Shown in pieces: positions 33,039-42,275 of a DNA stretch of 64,000 nt (position 1 is its first letter; the number at the start of each line of letters is the position of its first letter). The stretch comes from an uncultured bacterium (GTDB lineage Bacteria; Krumholzibacteriota; Krumholzibacteriia; JAJRXK01): NCBI GenBank assembly GCA_964593155.1, contig CAZQHE010000002.1, forward strand, positions 5,231-69,230, read 5' to 3'. The notes beneath the pieces are model-generated. The model was not told where the DNA came from. It did no database searches and saw only the letters and a list, made by a program, of their open reading frames with translations. The translations under genes and the position numbers were made by a program.

Positions 33039-34769
33039 ATGACCGACGACCTCCGTGCCCTGGAAGCCACGGCCCGCCGCTGGATGGACGACGACCCCGA
33101 TCCCGCCACACGCGAGGAGACCGCGCGCATGCTCGACGCCGGCGACTCCGACGCCCTGCGTGAAGCCTTCGGCGCACGACTGGAATTCGGGACGGCCGGA
33201 CTGCGCGGGGTGATCGGCCCCGGTCCCAACCGCATGAACCGCGCGCTGGTGCGGCGCGTGTCCGCGGGCCTGGCCGACTACCTGCTCACGGAGCAGGCCG
33301 ACGCACGCGACAAGGGTGTCGTGGTGGGGGGCGACGCGCGCCGCCTGTCGCCCGAACTGGCCGAGGACACCGCCCGTGTGTTCGCGGGCAGAGGGATCCG
33401 CGTGCACTTCTTCGAGGACCACGTGCCCACGCCCGTCCTGGCCTACGCCGTGCGCCGGCTCGGGGCCGCGGCCGGCGTGATCGTCACCGCGAGCCACAAC
33501 CCGCCCGAGTACAACGGCTACAAGGTCTACTGGGACAACGCGGCGCAGATCGTCCCGCCCCACGATCGTGGGATCAGCGCGGCGATCGACCGCATCGACG
33601 CGGTGTCCGACCTCACCATGCCCACCCTCGACGATGCGCGCGAGAGGGACCTGCTGCGCCCCGTGGGCGCCTCGGTCGTCGAGGACTACTTCACCGAACT
33701 CCTCGCCCAGCGTCGCCACCCCGACGTGCAGAAGGAGGTTTGCGTGGTCTACACCGCCATGCACGGCGTGGGCGGCCGCTTCGTGACCGACGTCCTGCAT
33801 CGTGCGGGCTACGCGAACGTCCACCCCGAGCCCGCGCAGTACCAGCCCGACGGCGAGTTCCCCACCGTGCGCTTCCCGAATCCCGAAGAAGACGGGGCGA
33901 TGGACCTGTCCATGGCGCTGGCGCGCGAACACGAGGCCGACGTGGTCCTGGCCAACGACCCCGACGCCGACCGGCTGGCCGTGGGCGTTCCCGTCGGCGG
34001 GGGCGAGTACCGTCTGCTGAGCGGAAACGAGATCGGTTGTCTGCTCGCCTACTACCTGCTCACCGAGAATCCGCCGGCCGAGTCCGATCCGCTGGTGATG
34101 ACCACCATCGTCAGCTCGCGCATGCTGAAGGCCATGGCCCACGAGCTCGGCGCGCACTACGACGAGACGTTGACCGGATTCAAGTGGATCGCCAACGCCG
34201 CGCAGCGCCACGCGCGCGATCGGGACTGGTACTTCGTCATGGGCTACGAAGAGGCGCTCGGCTACACCGTGGGGCCGGTGGTCGCCGACAAGGACGGGGT
34301 GGGCGCCGCGCTGCTCTTCACCGAGATCGCCGCGGTGTGCCGCAGCCGGGGCATGACCGTGCTCGACTACCTCGAGCAGATGGTCCGCCGCTTCGGGCTG
34401 TACGTCAGCCACCAGCACAGCCTGACCCTTCCCGGCCAGGAGGGCGCGGCCAAGATCCGCGCCGTCATGGACGCCTTCCGGGCCGAGGCTCCCGAACGCA
34501 TCGGTGACCACGCGGTGGTGCGCGTGGTGGACTACGCCGAAGGGTACGAGGGCCTGCCGCCGTCCAACGTGCTGGCCTTCGCGCTCGAGGGCGGCGGGCA
34601 GGTCCTGCTGCGGCCGAGTGGCACCGAGCCGAAGATCAAGTATTACTTCGAACTCTCCGAGCAGCCGGACGAGGGCGAGGAGATCGCGCGGGCCCGGGAA
34701 CGCGCGAACCACCGGCTCGACGCCCTGGTGCAGTCCTTCCTCGAAGTCGCCGAGGAGCGGGTCCGATGA
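33039..34769 (+). CDS. phosphoglucomutase/phosphomannomutase (alpha-D-phosphohexomutase family)
   Basis: Internal ATG of ORF 32712..34769. The active-site loop is VIVTASHNPPEYNGYKV and the metal-binding motif is DPDADRL. The sugar-binding motif is GNEIG. Confidence 0.9.
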   Translation: MTDDLRALEATARRWMDDDPDPATREETARMLDAGDSDALREAFGARLEFGTAGLRGVIGPGPNRMNRALVRRVSAGLADYLLTEQADARDKGVVVGGDARRLSPELAEDTARVFAGRGIRVHFFEDHVPTPVLAYAVRRLGAAAGVIVTASHNPPEYNGYKVYWDNAAQIVPPHDRGISAAIDRIDAVSDLTMPTLDDARERDLLRPVGASVVEDYFTELLAQRRHPDVQKEVCVVYTAMHGVGGRFVTDVLHRAGYANVHPEPAQYQPDGEFPTVRFPNPEEDGAMDLSMALAREHEADVVLANDPDADRLAVGVPVGGGEYRLLSGNEIGCLLAYYLLTENPPAESDPLVMTTIVSSRMLKAMAHELGAHYDETLTGFKWIANAAQRHARDRDWYFVMGYEEALGYTVGPVVADKDGVGAALLFTEIAAVCRSRGMTVLDYLEQMVRRFGLYVSHQHSLTLPGQEGAAKIRAVMDAFRAEAPERIGDHAVVRVVDYAEGYEGLPPSNVLAFALEGGGQVLLRPSGTEPKIKYYFELSEQPDEGEEIARARERANHRLDALVQSFLEVAEERVR

Positions 34770-35692
34770 CCGACACCACATCGCACGCCGATCCCGAATC
34801 GGTTCCGCACTTCCTCGACGCCGAGCCGTCGAGCCTGGAGGAGGCCGACGCGGCGGTGCTGTCGGTTCCCTACGAGGGCACGGTGAGCTACGGAACCGGC
34901 ACCGCGCAGGGGCCGGCCGCCGTGATCGGAGCCGGTCCGCACCTCGAGACCTTCGACGAGGAACTCGAGTGGGAGTCCGACGGCCGGTTGCAGGTCGCGA
35001 CACTGCGGCCGATCGCGCCCGACCCGGCCGAACGGCCCGAGAGCTTCATGGCAAGACTGAAGAGCGCCTGCATGGGACTCGGGCTGGTCCCGCCGTTCCC
35101 GCTGACCTTCGGTGGCGAGCACTCGATCACCCCAGCCGTGCTCGCGGGGATCCGCGACGACCTCACCGACGTCACCGTGGTGCAGATCGACGCCCACGCC
35201 GACCTGCGCGACAGCTACCACGGCAGCCGCGACAACCACGCCTGTGCCATGCGGCGCGTGCTCGACCTCGGGGTGCGGCGATTGATCGCGGTGGGCATCC
35301 GCAGCTGCACGGCCGACGAGTTCGCCCTCGCGCGCGACGACGAACGCATCGACACGCTCTACGCCCACCAGATGCACGATCCGGTGCGCTGGCAGCGCCT
35401 ACTCGACGAATTACGCGCGCTCGAGGGACCGGTGTACCTGACCGTCGACATCGACGGACTCGACTGCACGCTGTGCCCGGGGACCGGCACCCCCCAACCG
35501 GGTGGCCTGAGCTGGGAGCAGGCGGTCGACGTGGTGCGCGCCACGGTGCGCGAGAGTGGGGCCGAAGTGTTCGGAGCCGACGTGGTCGAGGTCGCTCCCA
35601 TGACGCAGAGCCAGGTGAACGAGATGGTCGCGGCCAAACTCGGCTTCAAGATCCTGGCGTACCGTTTCGCGCCCGGCCGGCGGGTCGGATAG
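34766..35692 (+). CDS. arginase-family ureohydrolase (agmatinase-like)
   Basis: 308 aa with binuclear Mn motifs (GGEHSIT, DAHADL, TVDIDGLDCTLCPGTGTPQPGGLS). It has an ATGA overlap with the phosphomutase gene. Confidence 0.85.
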   Translation: MTDTTSHADPESVPHFLDAEPSSLEEADAAVLSVPYEGTVSYGTGTAQGPAAVIGAGPHLETFDEELEWESDGRLQVATLRPIAPDPAERPESFMARLKSACMGLGLVPPFPLTFGGEHSITPAVLAGIRDDLTDVTVVQIDAHADLRDSYHGSRDNHACAMRRVLDLGVRRLIAVGIRSCTADEFALARDDERIDTLYAHQMHDPVRWQRLLDELRALEGPVYLTVDIDGLDCTLCPGTGTPQPGGLSWEQAVDVVRATVRESGAEVFGADVVEVAPMTQSQVNEMVAAKLGFKILAYRFAPGRRVG

Positions 35693-36100
35693 CGGCTCGC
35701 GTCGCGGCGGGCTGATCCGCGCGAAGTGCAGCCCCAGCGTCATCAGGGCCACGGCGACCCACAAGAGCAGTCGCAGCACGTTGGTGGCGCGCAGCACGCC
35801 CGAGGCGGCGTAGCGTGGCCGCGTGCGCGATCCCGACTCGACGGCCTTCCACAGTTGAAGGGCGGCGAGCACCGATGCCACCGCCACCAGGATCAGGGGC
35901 GCGCGGGCCGGACTCGCCCACGCCGTGAGCGTGAGCGCGGCGAGTGCGACGTCGGCGGCGGCCAACGTGCGGTTGCGCGCGTGGTTCCAGGCCGCCGATC
36001 GACGACGAGCCGTGCCCAGCAACAGCGCCAGGGCCTCGCTCACGGTGAGTCCGGCGGCGAGCAGGTTCACGGCGGGCAGCAACTGGATCACGAAGAACAT
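35411..36100 (-). CDS. small multi-TM membrane protein (unknown function)
   Basis: ORF 35411..36256 (-), with the Met at 36100 (a GAGG Shine-Dalgarno is upstream). It has four predicted TM helices (MFFVIQLLPAVNLLAAGLTV… LAAADVALAALTLTAW… LILVAVASVLAALQLW… VLRLLLWVAVALMTLGL). The 3' ~280 nt overlap the convergent agmatinase gene, and that part of the translation is low complexity. The true C-terminus is therefore uncertain. Confidence 0.4.
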   Translation of the reverse strand: MFFVIQLLPAVNLLAAGLTVSEALALLLGTARRRSAAWNHARNRTLAAADVALAALTLTAWASPARAPLILVAVASVLAALQLWKAVESGSRTRPRYAASGVLRATNVLRLLLWVAVALMTLGLHFARISPPRREPLSDPPAGRETVRQDLEAEFGRDHLVHLALRHGSDLDHVGSEHFGPTLAHRGAHHVDRLLPAQATRLGGAGPRAQRAVESVDVDGQVHRSLERA

Positions 36101-36107
36101 GGAGACC

Positions 36108-36745
36108 TCAGGCGCAGACGTCGAAGGGGTGCAGCGGGAACTCCGCGGGCGTGTGCCAGGCGGCCTCTTCGTGGCTCCAACGCCACGCGGCGCGTGCGGC
36201 GGCCACCGCGGCGAGTTCGTGGTCGCCGAGCGGGCGGGTGGGAAGCGACCCGACACCGTTCTCCCCGAGCCATCGTCGCAGCCGATCGCGCGCGTCGGCG
36301 TCGCTCTTCAGCGCACGCACGTCGGCGGCGTCGGCACCGGCCAGCACGAGGCTCGCGCCGGGGTGGACCTCGACGATCCGCGCGGCGGGCCGCAGGGCGC
36401 GCACGAGCCGCGCCACCGCCATGCCCCGCAACGTGAGGTAGGCCATACGGGTCATCGTCGGGGTCATGACCGAACCGGCCGGTAGCAGCGGCTTCACCGC
36501 GCGCCGCAGGGAACGGTCGGCGCTCCGGTCGCCACCGCCCGGCTCGTACGACAGAGGGGCGTCGAGCCCGACGACGCAGTCCTCGCTCCATCCCTCGATC
36601 GCGTCGCGCAGTGCGATGTCGTCGAGGCCGAGCTCGATCCCCGTGCACCGCAGCCGGTCGCCGTCGTCCCGCGCGGTGGCCACGGCGGTGTCGCGGGCGT
36701 TGGTCGGTCCCGCGAGATCGACCCCGACGACGTGGCGGGTGGTCA
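36108..36745 (-). CDS. DUF429-like protein (predicted RNase-H-fold nuclease)
   Basis: Internal Met at 36745 of ORF 36108..37286 gives MTTRHVVGVDLAGPTNARDTAVATARDDGDRLRCTGIELGLDDIALRDAIEGWSEDCVVGLDAPLSY… This shows the G(I/V)D(L/A)AG…(G/A)…A…D and internal D/E pattern of DUF429/COG2410. The family assignment is from memory. ATGA and 8-nt junctions link it to the flanking genes. Confidence 0.55.
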
Positions 36746-37215
36746 TCGGACCCAGCCCCGGACCTCGGGATGCTCCTGCGCGACCTCGTCGTACAGACGG
36801 GCCGAACGGTCGAAGTAGGTGAGCTTGGCCGCGAGCATCAGCGCGCCCCCACCGATCGCGAGCAGCGGGTCGTAGAGGAGCGCGCCGCTGATCATGATGA
36901 TCGTCCCCACGCTGCCGGCGATGGCCAGCACGGTGGTCACCTGCTTGCGCGCCGGATCGACCTCCCAACGGTCCTTCGCGGCGCGGATCCGCTCGCCGTA
37001 GGTCGCGCGCGAGACCCAGTTCCCCGTGGAGGCCGGCGGGGGTACCAGGCGTGGGGCGAGGATCGACCACAGCAGCAGGAAGACCATGGCCAGCAGGAAC
37101 CACGGATCGAACCACTGTCGCGACCACAGGGCGACGGCGAAGAGTGGCAGGGTGGCCAGGCGCGACCACACCGTGAAGGGATGCGCTCTCCGCGCCCAGA
37201 CCTCTTCGGTGGTCA
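36743..37215 (-). CDS. membrane protein (3-4 TM, unknown function)
   Basis: Internal Met at 37215 of ORF 36743..37444, with a GGGAGG Shine-Dalgarno 5 nt upstream. Sequence is MTTEEVWARRAHPFTVWSRLATLPLFAVALWSRQWFDPWFLLAMVFLLLWSILAPRL…TVLAIAGSVGTIIMISGALLYDPLLAIGGGALMLAA…. Confidence 0.5.
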
Positions 37216-37578
37216 TGAGTCCTCCCGATCGCGGTGGACGGTGTCGGGGGAGAAGGCGGGCAGGCACACGGCGATGTACTCCGCACCTTCGGGCGTGCTG
37301 TAGCGGATCCACTCGCCCGGGGCGGTGATCACGGCCTCGCCCGCCCGCACCTCGAGTGCGCCCCCCTCGTACTCGACGCGTACGGTGCCGTCGAGGACCA
37401 CCGTGATCTCCTCGAAGTCCGGGCGCTGCCCGGGCTCGACCCATCCCGCCGGCGACTTCATGCGGGCCACGCTCACGGTGTCGTGGCCGGTGTTGACGCG
37501 GCCGGTGAATTCCTCGATCCGCTTCGGCTGGTTGCCGGCGGGCTCGATCACGGTGGGTGCGTCGATCTTGCGGGGCAC
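37213..37578 (-). CDS. cupin-domain protein
   Basis: 121 aa, GTG start with a GGAGG Shine-Dalgarno 9 nt upstream. The beta-barrel motif is …ITVVLDGTVRVEYEGGALEVRAGEAVITAPGEWIRYSTPEGAEYIAVCLPAFSPD… It overlaps the downstream membrane-protein start by 3 nt. Confidence 0.65.
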   Translation of the reverse strand: MPRKIDAPTVIEPAGNQPKRIEEFTGRVNTGHDTVSVARMKSPAGWVEPGQRPDFEEITVVLDGTVRVEYEGGALEVRAGEAVITAPGEWIRYSTPEGAEYIAVCLPAFSPDTVHRDREDS

Positions 37579-37606
37579 GGGACGGTCCTCCAGGGGGGAT
37601 GGTCTG

Positions 37607-38641
37607 TCAGTCGTCGTCGGCGAGGCCGGCCATCAGGTCGTGCGGGCCGAAGACGAGTTCGAACTCCTGGCACACGACGTCCATGTTCGGCGAGAAGTCG
37701 TGTCCGGACGCCGAGAGCACGCGTTCGTAGTAGGCACGATGGTCGCGCCGCCAGGACTCGAGCGTGCCGTCGCCCTCGCCCTCACGGGTGGCGAAGGCTC
37801 GGGTCACGTGCTCGAAGGCGCACACGCGGACCCTCGTCGTCCGCACGATGCCGCGCGCGACGCCGCGGCCGTCGAGGACCACGGTGTGGTCACCCACGCG
37901 CGGGAGCGGTTCGCCGGCGATCTCGAGTTCGGCCATGCTCGGTGCGGTGGCGCGTTTGCGTCCGCTCACGATCAGGTTGCAGAGTTCGTCGGCCAGTTCC
38001 GCGGTGTCGCCGAAGCGCGCGGCCCGGTACGTCCAGTGGGTCGTGGCGGGATCCTGGCCGTGGTGTGCGAGGTAGGTCGTCCAAAGTGCATGGACCGAGG
38101 GGTCGAGGGTCGGCGCGGATTCCCGCGCCCGCACGTATTCGCACTGCACGAGCCCGTTGCGGTGGCTGCGGGAAGACGTCAGGCGGAAGTGGCGCTCGCA
38201 GGGTTCACCGCCGAAGAGCGGCCGGCCACGACCGAGCACCACCGGGTGGATGGCCACGCGTAGATCGTCGATCAGGTCGGCGGCGAGGAAGGACGCCGCC
38301 AGTTCGCCGCCGCCCACCAGCCACAGGTGACCGCCCGGCGCGGCGCGCAGACTCTCGACCACTTCGCTGGGTGGATCGTCGAGGAAGCGGACGTGGTCGT
38401 CGACCGCGCCGGCCCGCGAACGGCTGAACACGTAGCCCTTCTTGTCGTGGTACGGGTACTCGGCGAATCCCAGGACCTGTTCGTAGGTCCGCCGGCCCAT
38501 CAACACCGTGTCGACGGAGTCGGAGAAGACCTCGAAGCCGAAGTCTCCCTCGGTGAACAGCCAGTCGACGGCTCCGTCGTCACGGGCGACGAAGCCGTCG
38601 AGACTGGTGGCGACGTAGTAGACGACCCGGCGATCAGGCAC
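37607..38641 (-). CDS. fusion protein: RibD C-terminal/dihydrofolate-reductase-like domain + ASCH (PUA-like) domain
   Basis: 344 aa. The N-terminal half (RRVVYYVATSLDGFVARDDGAVDWLF…TVLMGRRTYE…HLWLVGGGELAASFL…LRVAIHPVVLGRGRPLFG) matches the RibD_C/DHFR-like reductase fold. The C-terminal half (…RFGDTAELADELCNLIVSGRKRATAPSM…GDHTVVLDGRGVARGIVRTTRVRVCAFEHVTRAFATREGEGDGTLESWRRDHRAYY…) matches ASCH. Confidence 0.7.
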   Translation of the reverse strand: MPDRRVVYYVATSLDGFVARDDGAVDWLFTEGDFGFEVFSDSVDTVLMGRRTYEQVLGFAEYPYHDKKGYVFSRSRAGAVDDHVRFLDDPPSEVVESLRAAPGGHLWLVGGGELAASFLAADLIDDLRVAIHPVVLGRGRPLFGGEPCERHFRLTSSRSHRNGLVQCEYVRARESAPTLDPSVHALWTTYLAHHGQDPATTHWTYRAARFGDTAELADELCNLIVSGRKRATAPSMAELEIAGEPLPRVGDHTVVLDGRGVARGIVRTTRVRVCAFEHVTRAFATREGEGDGTLESWRRDHRAYYERVLSASGHDFSPNMDVVCQEFELVFGPHDLMAGLADDD

Positions 38642-38688
38642 GGCTCACTCCTCCCACCGGAAGAGGGTCGTGCCGGTCGCCGTGGGGG

Positions 38689-39657
38689 TCAAGACTCGCT
38701 GGCCTCGGTCTCGGCCGTCAGCACGGCCACGCGGACCTCCGGCGGCGACTTCCGGCGGTCGATGCTGATCACGCGCACCGGGATCTCCTGGCCCACCTCG
38801 TAGTAGGCACCGGCGTCGGGGACGAAGCCACGGTTCATGTCCTTGACGTGCAGCAACGTCTTCGCGTGCTGGTGCAGGTCGAGGAACACGCCGTACTTCT
38901 TCACCGTCTGCACGCGACAATCGACGACCTCGCCCACCTCGGGCAGATCGATCGACTCCGGATCGACGGGTTCGGGAGCGAGCGACGGATCCTGGTCGAA
39001 CTCGTCGTCGTACTCGTCGAACTCGTCGTCGTACTCGTCGTCGTAGTCGTCCTCGTACTCGTCCTCGTACTCGTCGTCGGTGCCGCCCCCCGCGTTCGCA
39101 CCGGCGTGCGAGCCGTTCTCGCGGCGCTCCCGCGGCTCGGGCGGTCGCTTGTCGCTCTCGATCTCGTCGCGCAGGTCGTTGAGGTCGATGAAGTTCACAC
39201 CGACCTGCTGGCGCAGTTCGACCGCCACGTTCTGCGGAGTGGCGGCCACGAGCACGCGCTTGCCCCGGTGCTGCAGGGTCTCGAGCAGGGGCACGAAGTC
39301 ACTGTCGCCCGTCACGAAGATCGCGGTGTCGTAGTGGTCGACCTCGCTCAGGGCGTCGATCGCCAGTTCGATGTCCAGGCTACCCTTCATGTGGTAGCTG
39401 CCGGACGTGCGGTCGAAGACCTGCTTCAGCACCTTCTTGCGGATGGAGAAGCCGATCAGGGTGAGATGGTGCAGGAAGCGCTCCTGCTCGGGTTCGGGAG
39501 TACGGTTGTACGCCTGGTACCAACGCGCCGCCACGAGCTCATGGCCTTCACGCATGGTCGCGAGGAATCGCGGCCATTCGATCCACCAGCCGAGAGCTTC
39601 CTTCTGGGCGAAATAGACGTTGGCGCCATCGACGAAGATGGCCACACGTTCGGCCAT
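38689..39657 (-). CDS. NYN-domain (LabA-like) ribonuclease-like protein with acidic linker and C-terminal S1 RNA-binding domain
   Basis: Internal Met at 39657 of ORF 38689..39918. The NYN N-terminus is MAERVAIFVDGANVYFAQKEALGW… …AIFVTGDSDFVPLLETLQHRGKRVLV. The acidic low-complexity linker is DDEYEDEYEDDYDDEYDDEFDEYDDEFD. The S1-like C-terminus is GEVVDCRVQTVKKYGVFLDLHQHAKTLLHVKDMNRGFV…GQEIPVRVISID. Confidence 0.75.
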   Translation of the reverse strand: MAERVAIFVDGANVYFAQKEALGWWIEWPRFLATMREGHELVAARWYQAYNRTPEPEQERFLHHLTLIGFSIRKKVLKQVFDRTSGSYHMKGSLDIELAIDALSEVDHYDTAIFVTGDSDFVPLLETLQHRGKRVLVAATPQNVAVELRQQVGVNFIDLNDLRDEIESDKRPPEPRERRENGSHAGANAGGGTDDEYEDEYEDDYDDEYDDEFDEYDDEFDQDPSLAPEPVDPESIDLPEVGEVVDCRVQTVKKYGVFLDLHQHAKTLLHVKDMNRGFVPDAGAYYEVGQEIPVRVISIDRRKSPPEVRVAVLTAETEASES

Positions 39658-39930
39658 GGGAGCACCTCGTTCCGACTGTGTTCGTGGACGAGGGGTCGGG
39701 AGCCGGCCACGAACGTTCTCGTAGAGCGAAGAGGAAGGAGGTTCGACACTCGATTCCAGTTCGCGTGCTGTTGCCGTGGGCCCGCGTCGCGCGAGCGACG
39801 ACCGAGGGCCGGATGGCGGATCTCTCCGCGCTGTGTCGATCAGTGCCGGGGTCCCGGCCCGGGGCGCCCGACGGTCGGTGAGTCCATTGCGACGGCGTCG
39901 ATTTCCGAGCCCATGCAAACGGTCGACAAG

Positions 39931-40986
39931 CTAGTCGACTCGAACGAGCGTGCCAACCCGCTCCTCGACGGTTCCGATCCGGGTGGCCTGGTCGTATCCG
40001 GCCTCGTGGAGTGCCCGGAGGGCTTCGTCGGCCCGCTCGGACGGGAGGCAGGCCACCAGTGGCCCGGATGTCTGCGGGTCGTGCAACAACTCCGCCCGTT
40101 CGGCCGGCAGATCGGCGGGGATGTCGACCCTTTCGACCGCGTGGCGCATGTTCGCCTGGGCACCTCCGCAGGTGAATCCCTCGGCCAGCATCCGGACCGC
40201 ACCGGGAAGCTCGGGAATCGCACGGTGGTCGAGGCGCAGGGTCACGTCGCTCGCCTGGGCCATCTCCGCGAGATGACCGCTCAGACCGAAGCCCGTGATG
40301 TCGGTCGCGGCACGGGCCCCGTGCGCGCGGGCGATCTCGGCGGCCGGGCCGTTCGAGGTCGTCATGCCCCGGACGAGCTCCGCGAACCACGGGTCCTCCT
40401 CGCCGAAGCGGCCGCTCTTGAGCGCGGTGGACAGTGCCGAGGTGCCGATCGCCTTGTTGATCAGCAGCACGTCGCCCGGCCGGGCCGCGTGGTTGGTGAG
40501 CAGCGCATCGGGATGGACCTCACCGACCACCGCCAGGCCGAACTTCAGTTCGGAGTCCTTGACCGTGTGTCCACCCAGCACCGGACACGACGACGCGAGC
40601 GCGGCCTCGCTGGCCCCGGCCAGCACGTCGCGCAGGGCCTCGGCGGGAATCTTCGGCGAGAAGCACGCCACGTTCAGGGCCATGAGCGGACGCGCGCCCA
40701 TGGCGTAGATGTCGCTGATCGAGTTCGTCGCGGCGATGCGGCCGAAGGTGAAGGGGTCGTCGACGATCGGCGTGATCACGTCGACCGTGAACACGATCGC
40801 GCGGTCCTCGCTCACACGGTAGACGGCGGCGTCGTCGGCGGGCTCGAGCCCGACGAGGACGCGGTCGTCGGTCGGGATCTTCGGCAATCCCTGCAGGATG
40901 ATCTCCAGGTCCCCCGGAGCGAGCTTGGCGGCTCAACCGGCGGCGCTGGCGTACTGCGTCAGACGGATCCGTTGCTCGTCACTCAT
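39931..40986 (-). CDS. selD: selenide, water dikinase (selenophosphate synthetase) SelD, selenocysteine-containing (in-frame UGA at complement 40933..40935)
   Basis: The ORF track gives only 39931..40887. Reading upstream on the - strand from ATG (complement 40984..40986) gives MSDEQRIRLTQYASAAG-TGA-AAKLAPGDLEIILQGLPKIPTDD… The TGA aligns with the catalytic Cys17 of E. coli SelD (RLTQYSHGAGCGCKISP) and the essential Lys follows. A good Shine-Dalgarno (AAGGGGGUG) precedes the ATG. The rest matches SelD throughout (…FGRIAATNSISDIYAMGARP…VLGGHTV…DITGFGLSGHL…). Confidence 0.85.
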
Positions 40987-41009
40987 GGTTCACCCCCTTT
41001 CGTGGTGCC

Positions 41010-42275
41010 TCAGAACGTGAAGGTGTCCTCGAACACGAAGACGTCCTCGCCGTCGTCGGTCCGGGCCCACTCGAAACGGAAGTTCCGCGTGTTGAAGTTG
41101 AAGTGCAAGCCCAGACCCGAGCCGAAGCGCACTTCCTGCGCGTCGAGGTCGGCGTCGTGCGCCCACGAGGTGCCCCGATCGTGGAATGCGTGCACGCCCA
41201 CGCCGATCGTACGGCCCTCGCGCAGGGGCAACAGCAGCAGCGGGCGTCGCAGCTCGACACTCGCGCGCCAGGCGTCGTCGCCCACGATGCTGCCGAAGTC
41301 GAGTCCGCGCAGCGTCATGGGGCCGCCCTGGTAGTTCTTCCGGTAGAAGGGCAGCGTGGTGTTCGCGGTCCGGAACGCACCGTTCACCGCGAGTACGGTC
41401 CCGACCACCGGCAGCGTGCGGAAGCCCGACAGCGAGATCGACGCGATCCTGTAGTCGTCGATGCCGTCGTCGAGTCCTCCGAACAGCAGCTCGGCGCGGC
41501 CGTGCAGGCCGGTACCGGGGTAGTAGCGCACGTCGCGCGAGTCGTGGATCAACTCCAGGGCCACTTCGGGATCGTGGACGATGCCGGCGCCCTCGAGTTC
41601 GAGTTCGCTCCAACCGGCCTGCGCGCGAAGGGTCACCCAGGGATCGAAGGTGCGCCACACGCCGGCGCGCGCTCCCCAGTCGGTGAACTCGTCGCTCGGA
41701 TCGATCGCTGCGAGATCGTACTCCCACTCGTGGCGTTGCCAGTGCGCGGCGGCGAACACGCCGAGTCGTGCGGGGCCGAGGATCCAGGGGTTCTGCCACA
41801 CGACACGGGCGCCGCGGCGCGACCACGCGCTCAGCTCGAGGTCGAGGCTCTCGGCGCGGCCGGTCGGGTTCACCCAGCCCACGCGGAGTGTCCCGAGGAA
41901 CGATTCCCCGTAGCGTCGGCTGTACTCGAGTCCCGGCGCCCAGCGGAAACGGTCGTCCTCTTCCACGTGGACGATCAGTTCGACTCGTGTCGGGTCCGGA
42001 CGAACGGTCTCGATCTCGACATAGGCGATGAACGCGAGCGCCTCGAGGCGTTCCCATCCCTCGCCGACGAGTTCCGGATCGTACTCGTCGCCGGCCTCGA
42101 TCCCGAGGGTGCGTCGGAGCACGTAGTCGCGCGTGACTTCGTTGCCCCGGAATTCGACGCGTTCGACCCTGCGCTCGCCGCGGTTCTGCAGGAAGGGGTT
42201 CTGCGCCGGAGCCACGGTGGCCGGTAGCAGCAGGACGACGGCGAGGAACGTACTGAGCGTGTGCCGCAGGGACAT
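41010..42275 (-). CDS. Omp85-family (BamA/TamA-like) outer-membrane protein, one POTRA + beta-barrel
   Basis: 421 aa. The signal peptide is MSLRHTLSTFLAVVLLLPATVAPAQ. A POTRA-like segment (VERVEFRGNEVTRDYVLRRTLGIEAGDEYDP) is followed by a barrel with the terminal aromatic …FEDTFTF. The stop is 23 nt upstream of the selD start. Confidence 0.75.
   Translation of the reverse strand: MSLRHTLSTFLAVVLLLPATVAPAQNPFLQNRGERRVERVEFRGNEVTRDYVLRRTLGIEAGDEYDPELVGEGWERLEALAFIAYVEIETVRPDPTRVELIVHVEEDDRFRWAPGLEYSRRYGESFLGTLRVGWVNPTGRAESLDLELSAWSRRGARVVWQNPWILGPARLGVFAAAHWQRHEWEYDLAAIDPSDEFTDWGARAGVWRTFDPWVTLRAQAGWSELELEGAGIVHDPEVALELIHDSRDVRYYPGTGLHGRAELLFGGLDDGIDDYRIASISLSGFRTLPVVGTVLAVNGAFRTANTTLPFYRKNYQGGPMTLRGLDFGSIVGDDAWRASVELRRPLLLLPLREGRTIGVGVHAFHDRGTSWAHDADLDAQEVRFGSGLGLHFNFNTRNFRFEWARTDDGEDVFVFEDTFTF

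Follow-up and report, generated by a model that had tools for sequence, protein, structure and literature searches.

Six co-oriented genes packed tightly on the minus strand between positions 35411 and 39657 of the window, by which we mean the whole 64,000-nt stretch of contig CAZQHE010000002.1 from an uncultured bacterium of the Krumholzibacteriia that was analysed here, raise the question of whether they act together or merely lie together. A preliminary description of this DNA had listed the same six genes, all of which were confirmed as open reading frames (ORFs), and had implied for them a collective function. In string order they encode a NYN domain joined to an S1 domain (NYN-S1), a RibD_C domain fused to an ASCH domain (RibD_C-ASCH), a small cupin, a membrane protein of the DUF6653 family, a predicted nuclease of the DUF429 family and a second membrane protein (TM2). 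The comparative data speak against a shared function, and we consider it likely that the string is a composite of independent genes, in which an NYN-S1 RNase of conserved position is followed by a lineage-restricted, probably co-transcribed accessory block; as a system, the string would matter little.

The evidence that carries this reading comes from the behaviour of the genes outside the lineage of the window, assessed over a comparison base of about 170 related loci. Orthologues of the DUF429 protein were found at 80 loci (L004-L083; 38-56% identity) in a scan that took one genome per species, and these loci belong to Krumholzibacteriia, Myxococcota, Rhodothermales, Bacillaceae, Anaerolineales, Planctomycetota, a Thermoplasmatota archaeon and others. 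The 10-kb neighbourhoods of these orthologues were searched by tblastn at E<=1 and, at E<=0.01, with hidden Markov models (HMMs) made from proteins of the window's lineage, and by both approaches the other five string genes were absent from all 80 loci (0/80). Clustering of the genes around DUF429 likewise revealed no partner common to different phyla: the two largest clusters (36 and 20 loci) were rejected as partners, being probably antisense ORFs of DUF429 itself, to judge from one representative lying over the DUF429 match on the other strand, and each of the remaining clusters is limited to a single lineage. The NYN-S1 family, retrieved by a metagenome scan with the NYN-S1 alignment, also occupies 80 loci, and other string genes accompany it only in L100 and L118, which are members of the window's own lineage, leaving 0/78 NYN-S1 loci with string partners outside it. 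Neighbour clusters of the NYN-S1 family were dismissed as merely the synteny of another lineage, unlinked to the genes of the window; by the look of their representative sequences, those neighbours resemble proteins of the efflux-adaptor type and glutamate-synthase-like proteins. Neither cupin, DUF429 nor any other string partner surrounds the DUF6653 homologues carried by plasmids (0/5 loci), and string partners are equally missing around the only RibD_C-ASCH fusion found outside the lineage (0/1). A cross-genome check of the neighbourhood of DUF429, membrane protein and cupin, proposed in the preliminary description together with chance-level co-occurrence as the outcome that would count against its own suggestion, thus yielded no conserved multi-gene system.

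Within the lineage the picture is one of common descent and piecemeal loss. Six relatives (L084-L089; DUF429 59-89% identical) keep the string together with its flanks, which comprise HSP20, Band_7, Omp85 and selD genes on one side and agmatinase (arginase), phosphoglucomutase (PGM), PAP2, hybrid kinase and PGI genes on the other. Since the flanks are as well conserved as the string, its persistence reflects ordinary lineage synteny and is no sign of functional linkage. Single genes drop out of it, however, while their neighbours stay intact. TM2 is absent from L087, L088 and L118, where the DUF429 stop codon abuts the agmatinase gene, and L089 lacks the cupin and retains DUF6653. In L100 a clean deletion of about 605 nt, evident from DNA alignment (L100 10912-11016 vs window 36133-36737), has removed DUF429, of which only the last ~25 nt (..HPFDACA*) survive before TM2, with DUF6653 and TM2 intact. 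The genes also diverge at unequal rates, the same genome pairs sharing 75-79% identity in NYN-S1, 78% in the cupin, 64% in RibD_C-ASCH, 62% in DUF429 and 44-45% in DUF6653. Collective function is therefore unsupported, as the genes do not co-occur outside one narrow lineage and inside it go missing singly.

A sister lineage (L098, L099, L102 and L104) indicates which part of the arrangement is the more widely conserved. Its NYN-S1 proteins are 58-59% identical to that of the window over the full length, its agmatinases 55-61% and its selD 55%; the convergent agmatinase gene ends 4-14 nt after NYN-S1 with nothing between them, and in L102 selD lies upstream of NYN-S1. Judged from these alignments, the conserved frame around the filling consists of selD, followed by NYN-S1 and finally the convergent agmatinase gene. 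The NYN-S1 site, downstream of a selenocysteine-type selD and facing agmatinase, would thus be conserved in the broader clade, and in one subclade the interval between NYN-S1 and agmatinase would be occupied by three to five variable accessory genes, drawn from RibD_C-ASCH, cupin, DUF6653, DUF429 and the gene of a small membrane protein. The filling, limited as it appears to be to that subclade, may have been either gained there or lost in the sister lineage. Because the accessory genes are gained, lost and found elsewhere independently of one another, each of them most likely works alone.

Several considerations weigh against the composite reading. Only four of the six genes served as anchors outside the lineage; the DUF6653 sample is small (five plasmid loci), and cupin and TM2 were unusable for this purpose. 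L089, which contributes the loss of the cupin, is a long-read contig of 1.18x coverage with frameshifts, so that its gene content is less certain. Two ATGA overlaps within the string are kept in relatives with 62-89% DUF429 identity, and coupling of this type often marks functional partners or subunits of a complex. A functional module of recent, lineage-specific origin would also be compatible with the comparative data.

The anatomy of the string explains why it had been taken for a unit. The window has a GC content of ~70%, and open frames are accordingly numerous; the six genes could nevertheless be placed from the context of their start codons, from their Pfam matches and from a GC content at third codon positions (GC3) of 0.87-0.92. 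In string order their junctions consist of a 47-nt gap, a 28-nt gap, two 4-nt ATGA overlaps (cupin/DUF6653 and DUF6653/DUF429) and a 7-nt gap, and Shine-Dalgarno motifs of the GGAGG type precede the gene starts, much as had been described before; the packing was borne out, and only two values needed trivial correction, an overlap given as 3 nt being the 4-nt ATGA and a junction of 8 nt being 7 nt. Within the string, consensus scans of the minus strand, which are weak at 70% GC, turned up neither a terminator-like nor a sigma-70-like site. Co-transcription is plausible given the tight junctions, the two lineage-conserved ATGA overlaps and the lack of an internal terminator, and the string is probably one transcript with translationally coupled genes. 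Rfam gave no match at E<=1 over 34500-41500, nor any at gathering score across the window as a whole. The block does not differ in base composition from its surroundings (GC 0.68-0.73 vs 0.65-0.72 over the flanks), and there are no mobile-element genes nearby.

The first gene of the string, NYN-S1 (38689-39657, minus strand; 322 aa), combines an N-terminal NYN domain (LabA-like, PIN-like), an acidic linker and a C-terminal S1 domain. The NYN domain matches Pfam PF01936 almost from end to end (3e-27, 96.3 bits vs a cut-off of 24.2, profile 1-144 of 145) and the S1 domain PF00575 at residues 239-304 (2.4e-10, 41.1 bits vs 22). As with RibD_C, ASCH, cupin and DUF429, the labels first given to these domains are all upheld by scores above the Pfam gathering thresholds. 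Among solved structures, VPA0982 (2qip) comes nearest to the NYN domain, its sequence aligning at the FVDGAN, D..D and GDSDF (GDxDF) motifs, and residues equivalent to the aspartate motifs are invariant in the alignment of the NYN-S1 family. On the S1 side, matches in the PDB are ribosomal protein S1 and GSP13. The protein thus resembles VPA0982 and the LabA-like (DUF88) nucleases along the whole NYN domain and in its conserved aspartates, and S1-domain regulators, most closely those of the GSP13/CvfD type, in its C-terminal domain; it differs from both in fusing the two domains through a linker rich in D, E and Y, which was found, as had been anticipated, at residues ~193-222 (DDEYEDEYEDDYDDEYDDEFDEYDDEFD). 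The fusion is less unusual than had been supposed: an exhaustive search of cluster representatives revealed proteins of other lineages, 35-41% identical, in which NYN is combined with a single S1 domain or with two. Where NYN-S1-S1 relatives elsewhere have their first S1-like domain, proteins of the window's lineage have the acidic linker. A literature search on the fused NYN-S1 family found nothing, and no member is known to have been studied. It can be proposed that NYN-S1 is a stand-alone RNA-binding endoribonuclease, in which the S1 domain would hold single-stranded RNA and the PIN-like NYN domain would cleave it through metal-binding aspartates.

NYN-S1 has its own upstream region of ~270 nt. 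About 90 nt ahead of its start (39658-39745, minus strand) are conserved within the lineage and contain an 8-bp hairpin (GUUCGUGG/CCACGAAC) with one compensatory change, U-A to C-G, in two relatives. For an anti-Shine-Dalgarno-like element, CCUCCUUCC, pairing with the Shine-Dalgarno region of the gene is predicted, and this may exert translational control. Folding of this 5' untranslated region gave a z-score of -1.16, which is thermodynamically not unusual, and Rfam yielded no match to it.

The second gene (37607-38641, minus strand; 344 aa) encodes the RibD_C-ASCH fusion, with a YyaP-like N-terminal half and a C-terminal ASCH half that is YhfF-like according to source annotations. Both halves score above gathering thresholds in Pfam (RibD_C, PF01872, residues 6-165, 1.3e-20, 74.5 bits; ASCH, PF04266, residues 217-331, 5.6e-21, 75.6 bits) and both have relatives of solved structure, 2gd9 (Bacillus subtilis YyaP) at 5.5e-30 and the ASCH protein 1t62 at 4.8e-24. 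Likeness to the YyaP-type RibD_C proteins of the 'dihydrofolate reductase family' lies in the N-terminal half and likeness to the YhfF/YqfB-type ASCH proteins, seen through 1t62, in the C-terminal half, and what sets the window protein apart from either is that both are joined in one polypeptide. The preliminary description had called this architecture unusual, and it is indeed rare: among 263 matches, it was found only in the window's lineage and in one independent fusion (P0131, 39% identity), whose neighbours are genes of the PTE and URO-D families. Relatives of the ASCH half are otherwise free or repeatedly fused to GNAT acetyltransferases (P0171, P0174, P0179 and P0210). We would regard RibD_C-ASCH as a two-domain small-molecule enzyme; the RibD_C half is probably an NADPH-dependent reductase, and the ASCH half probably acts as an amidohydrolase on N-acylated pyrimidines or nucleosides.

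This last assignment opens the way to an alternative in which the string would be a young, lineage-specific module for the salvage or detoxification of N-acylated pyrimidine nucleosides arising from RNA decay. NYN-S1 would degrade RNA, ASCH would strip N4-acyl groups, the product would pass to RibD_C and the cupin for processing, and DUF6653 and TM2 would carry it across the membrane. To our knowledge, no activity has been established for ASCH proteins of the YhfF type, which this domain of the window protein resembles, and this weighs against such a scheme. Tight packing and translational coupling, kept within the lineage, are in its favour, as is the activity of the YqfB-type ASCH proteins, which are N4-acetylcytidine (N4-acylcytidine; the former abbreviated ac4C) amidohydrolases (PMC6972931), some ASCH proteins acting on tRNA ac4C (PMC6972931, bioRxiv 10.64898/2026.02.27.708502). 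The scheme can also point to scattered links to GNAT enzymes, in the ASCH relatives, in one DUF429 orthologue and beside the DUF6653 gene of Synechocystis pSYSG, but these are single or indirect cases, and this shared thread toward acetyl or acyl chemistry is weak. Against it stand, above all, the comparative data already given: the genes co-occur in no other lineage, they are lost one at a time with their neighbours intact, and the sister lineage has NYN-S1 without the block. We hold a salvage module built from the whole string to be unlikely, and we think it very unlikely that the block from RibD_C-ASCH to TM2 behind NYN-S1 is a recent pathway recycling or detoxifying such nucleosides (ac4C) with RibD_C-ASCH as its key bifunctional enzyme.

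The fifth gene (36108-36746, minus strand; 212 aa) encodes a DUF429 protein, a predicted nuclease of RuvC-like RNase-H fold. Its membership in the family (PF04250, 4e-12, above gathering score) is attested by the profile match, by a fold of RNase-H-like type and by acidic residues that are conserved in strands 1 and 4. The fold is RuvC-like, with only 10-13% identity to RuvC itself, from which the protein is distinguished by an extra insert carrying the invariant motifs DAPLSYxPGGGDR and VMTPTMTRMAYLTLRG. Majorek et al. (2014, PMC3985635) had already placed DUF429 in the RuvC-like clade (clade D) of the RNase H-like superfamily and had reported that its gene context is shared by closely related taxa alone, and the present results agree with both points. 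A profile search of the PDB sequences retrieved no solved relative. The orthologous group has 39 invariant columns among 28 sequences, which looks unusually striking for an uncharacterised protein, and the two motifs are near-invariant from Bacillaceae to Planctomycetota and in one metagenome-assembled genome of a Thermoplasmatota archaeon. One orthologue (P0018, L176 2314-3417; 56% identical) has a GNAT acetyltransferase as its fusion partner. The protein would then be a RuvC-like, metal-dependent nuclease of a multi-phylum group without fixed neighbours.

The presence of two putative nucleases and two membrane proteins invites comparison with anti-phage defence, and the string could be imagined as a new system in which NYN and DUF429 nucleases operate with membrane effectors. 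PADLOC did return matches, to the NYN domain model PDLC01154 (1.5e-18), to HEC-09 (2e-12) and, for DUF429, to the candidate PDC-S44 (5e-9), but these are weak and domain-level only; the last amounts to 33.7 bits over profile positions 8-145 of 259 and so falls short of a full-length match. The likeness to PDC-S44, HEC-09 and PDLC01154 thus lies in a shared domain, DUF429 or NYN, with weak E-values, and the window genes differ from them in having neither a defence-island context nor conserved partners. In agreement with the preliminary description, which knew of no pathway or defence system of such composition, no described system was matched. The flanks are housekeeping genes in stable synteny with no defence or mobile genes among them, the block has the GC content of its surroundings, and L100 has lost DUF429 and yet retains its neighbours. 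Moreover, DUF429 is highly conserved across phyla, in the manner of a housekeeping gene and unlike the fast-evolving genes of defence, and has no conserved partner gene. A defence system is, on these grounds, extremely improbable.

Two proteins had been described simply as membrane proteins, and hydrophobic segments were found in both of them; the first turned out to belong to a named family, and the second to none. The first (36743-37216, minus strand; 157 aa) is an integral membrane protein of the DUF6653 family (PF20358; 9e-29, 100.7 bits vs 27, profile 14-165 of 170) and evolves fast inside the lineage (38-46% identity). A word-indexed search returned only three close matches to it, and tblastn against plasmids was used to reach other lineages; it recovered proteins annotated as DUF6653 in RefSeq and located homologues on five plasmids or chromids, of Synechocystis, Peteryoungia, Paracoccus, Vibrio and Halorussus. 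A scan of viral contigs with the DUF6653 alignment found no match. A co-oriented nitronate monooxygenase gene lies near DUF6653 in two of the four annotated plasmid loci: directly adjacent, 44 nt apart, in Synechocystis pSYSG (L171), where two GNAT genes also adjoin DUF6653, and ~1.7 kb upstream, with three genes between, on the Peteryoungia plasmid (L170). Other neighbours include an SDR and an alpha/beta hydrolase. The nitronate monooxygenase neighbourhood is a possible functional lead for the DUF6653 family.

The small cupin that precedes DUF6653 (37213-37578, minus strand; 121 aa) shows marginal but consistent Pfam matches (Cupin_2, 28.5 bits vs 27.2; AraC_binding_2, 30.9 vs 27; EutQ, 23.6 vs 21), and its PDB match is EutQ at 2e-4. 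The last gene, TM2 (35411-36100, minus strand), is an open frame of 229 aa without any match in Pfam, NCBIfam or PADLOC. Over its last 282 nt (35411-35692) it overlaps the 3' end of agmatinase on the opposite strand, and its GC3 is 0.89 in the non-overlapping part vs 0.72 in the overlap, the frame having a coding signal of its own in the first ~136 codons only. The homologue in L086, annotated with a length of 164 aa, is 58% identical over residues 1-155; in L001 and L002 annotators left TM2 uncalled. Judging by these features, a genuine gene appears to occupy the first ~136 codons. Residues 144-228 seem conserved in other loci only because the agmatinase sequence on the opposite strand is conserved. 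Cupin, DUF6653 and TM2 may each have small-molecule or membrane roles.

A smaller grouping could also be envisaged, in which cupin and DUF6653, perhaps with TM2, would form a membrane-associated small-molecule unit and DUF429 and RibD_C-ASCH would be passengers. The three genes stay together in L100 despite the deletion of DUF429, the cupin/DUF6653 overlap is conserved, and DUF6653 is found elsewhere among oxidoreductases and hydrolases, the nitronate monooxygenases just described included. Yet DUF6653 occurs without the cupin in L089, cupin and DUF6653 occur without TM2 in L087, L088 and L118, and none of the five plasmid DUF6653 loci has a relative of the cupin. Such a unit is distinctly unlikely.

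Of the genes that frame the string, selD (selenide, water dikinase) lies immediately upstream, as originally reported, at 39931-40986 on the minus strand (NCBIfam selD, 2e-90), and agmatinase converges on the string from downstream (34766-35692, plus strand; NCBIfam agmatinase, 3.6e-59). The NCBIfam match of selD begins at profile position 33, and the gene contains an in-frame TGA at 40933-40935 (translation ..SAAG*AAKL..), where the catalytic Cys/Sec is located; nine relatives share this codon and the residues on either side of it. The true start of selD is the ATG at 40986, so that its product is a SelD that contains selenocysteine. Gene callers cut selD short at the TGA. Folding did not demonstrate a hairpin resembling a selenocysteine insertion sequence (SECIS) after this codon (z +0.56).

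All parts of the string belong to known, if uncharacterised, families, and what emerged here on DUF429, NYN-S1 and RibD_C-ASCH will come as no surprise to the specialist. The value of the locus would lie in its single proteins. With its RuvC-like fold, invariant motifs and no conserved neighbours, the DUF429 group offers a clean target for the biochemistry of a single protein, and NYN combined with one or two S1 domains constitutes an unstudied family of candidate bacterial RNases. The RibD_C-ASCH fusion, for its part, might hint at the class of substrates handled by the uncharacterised YyaP-type reductases and YhfF-type ASCH proteins.

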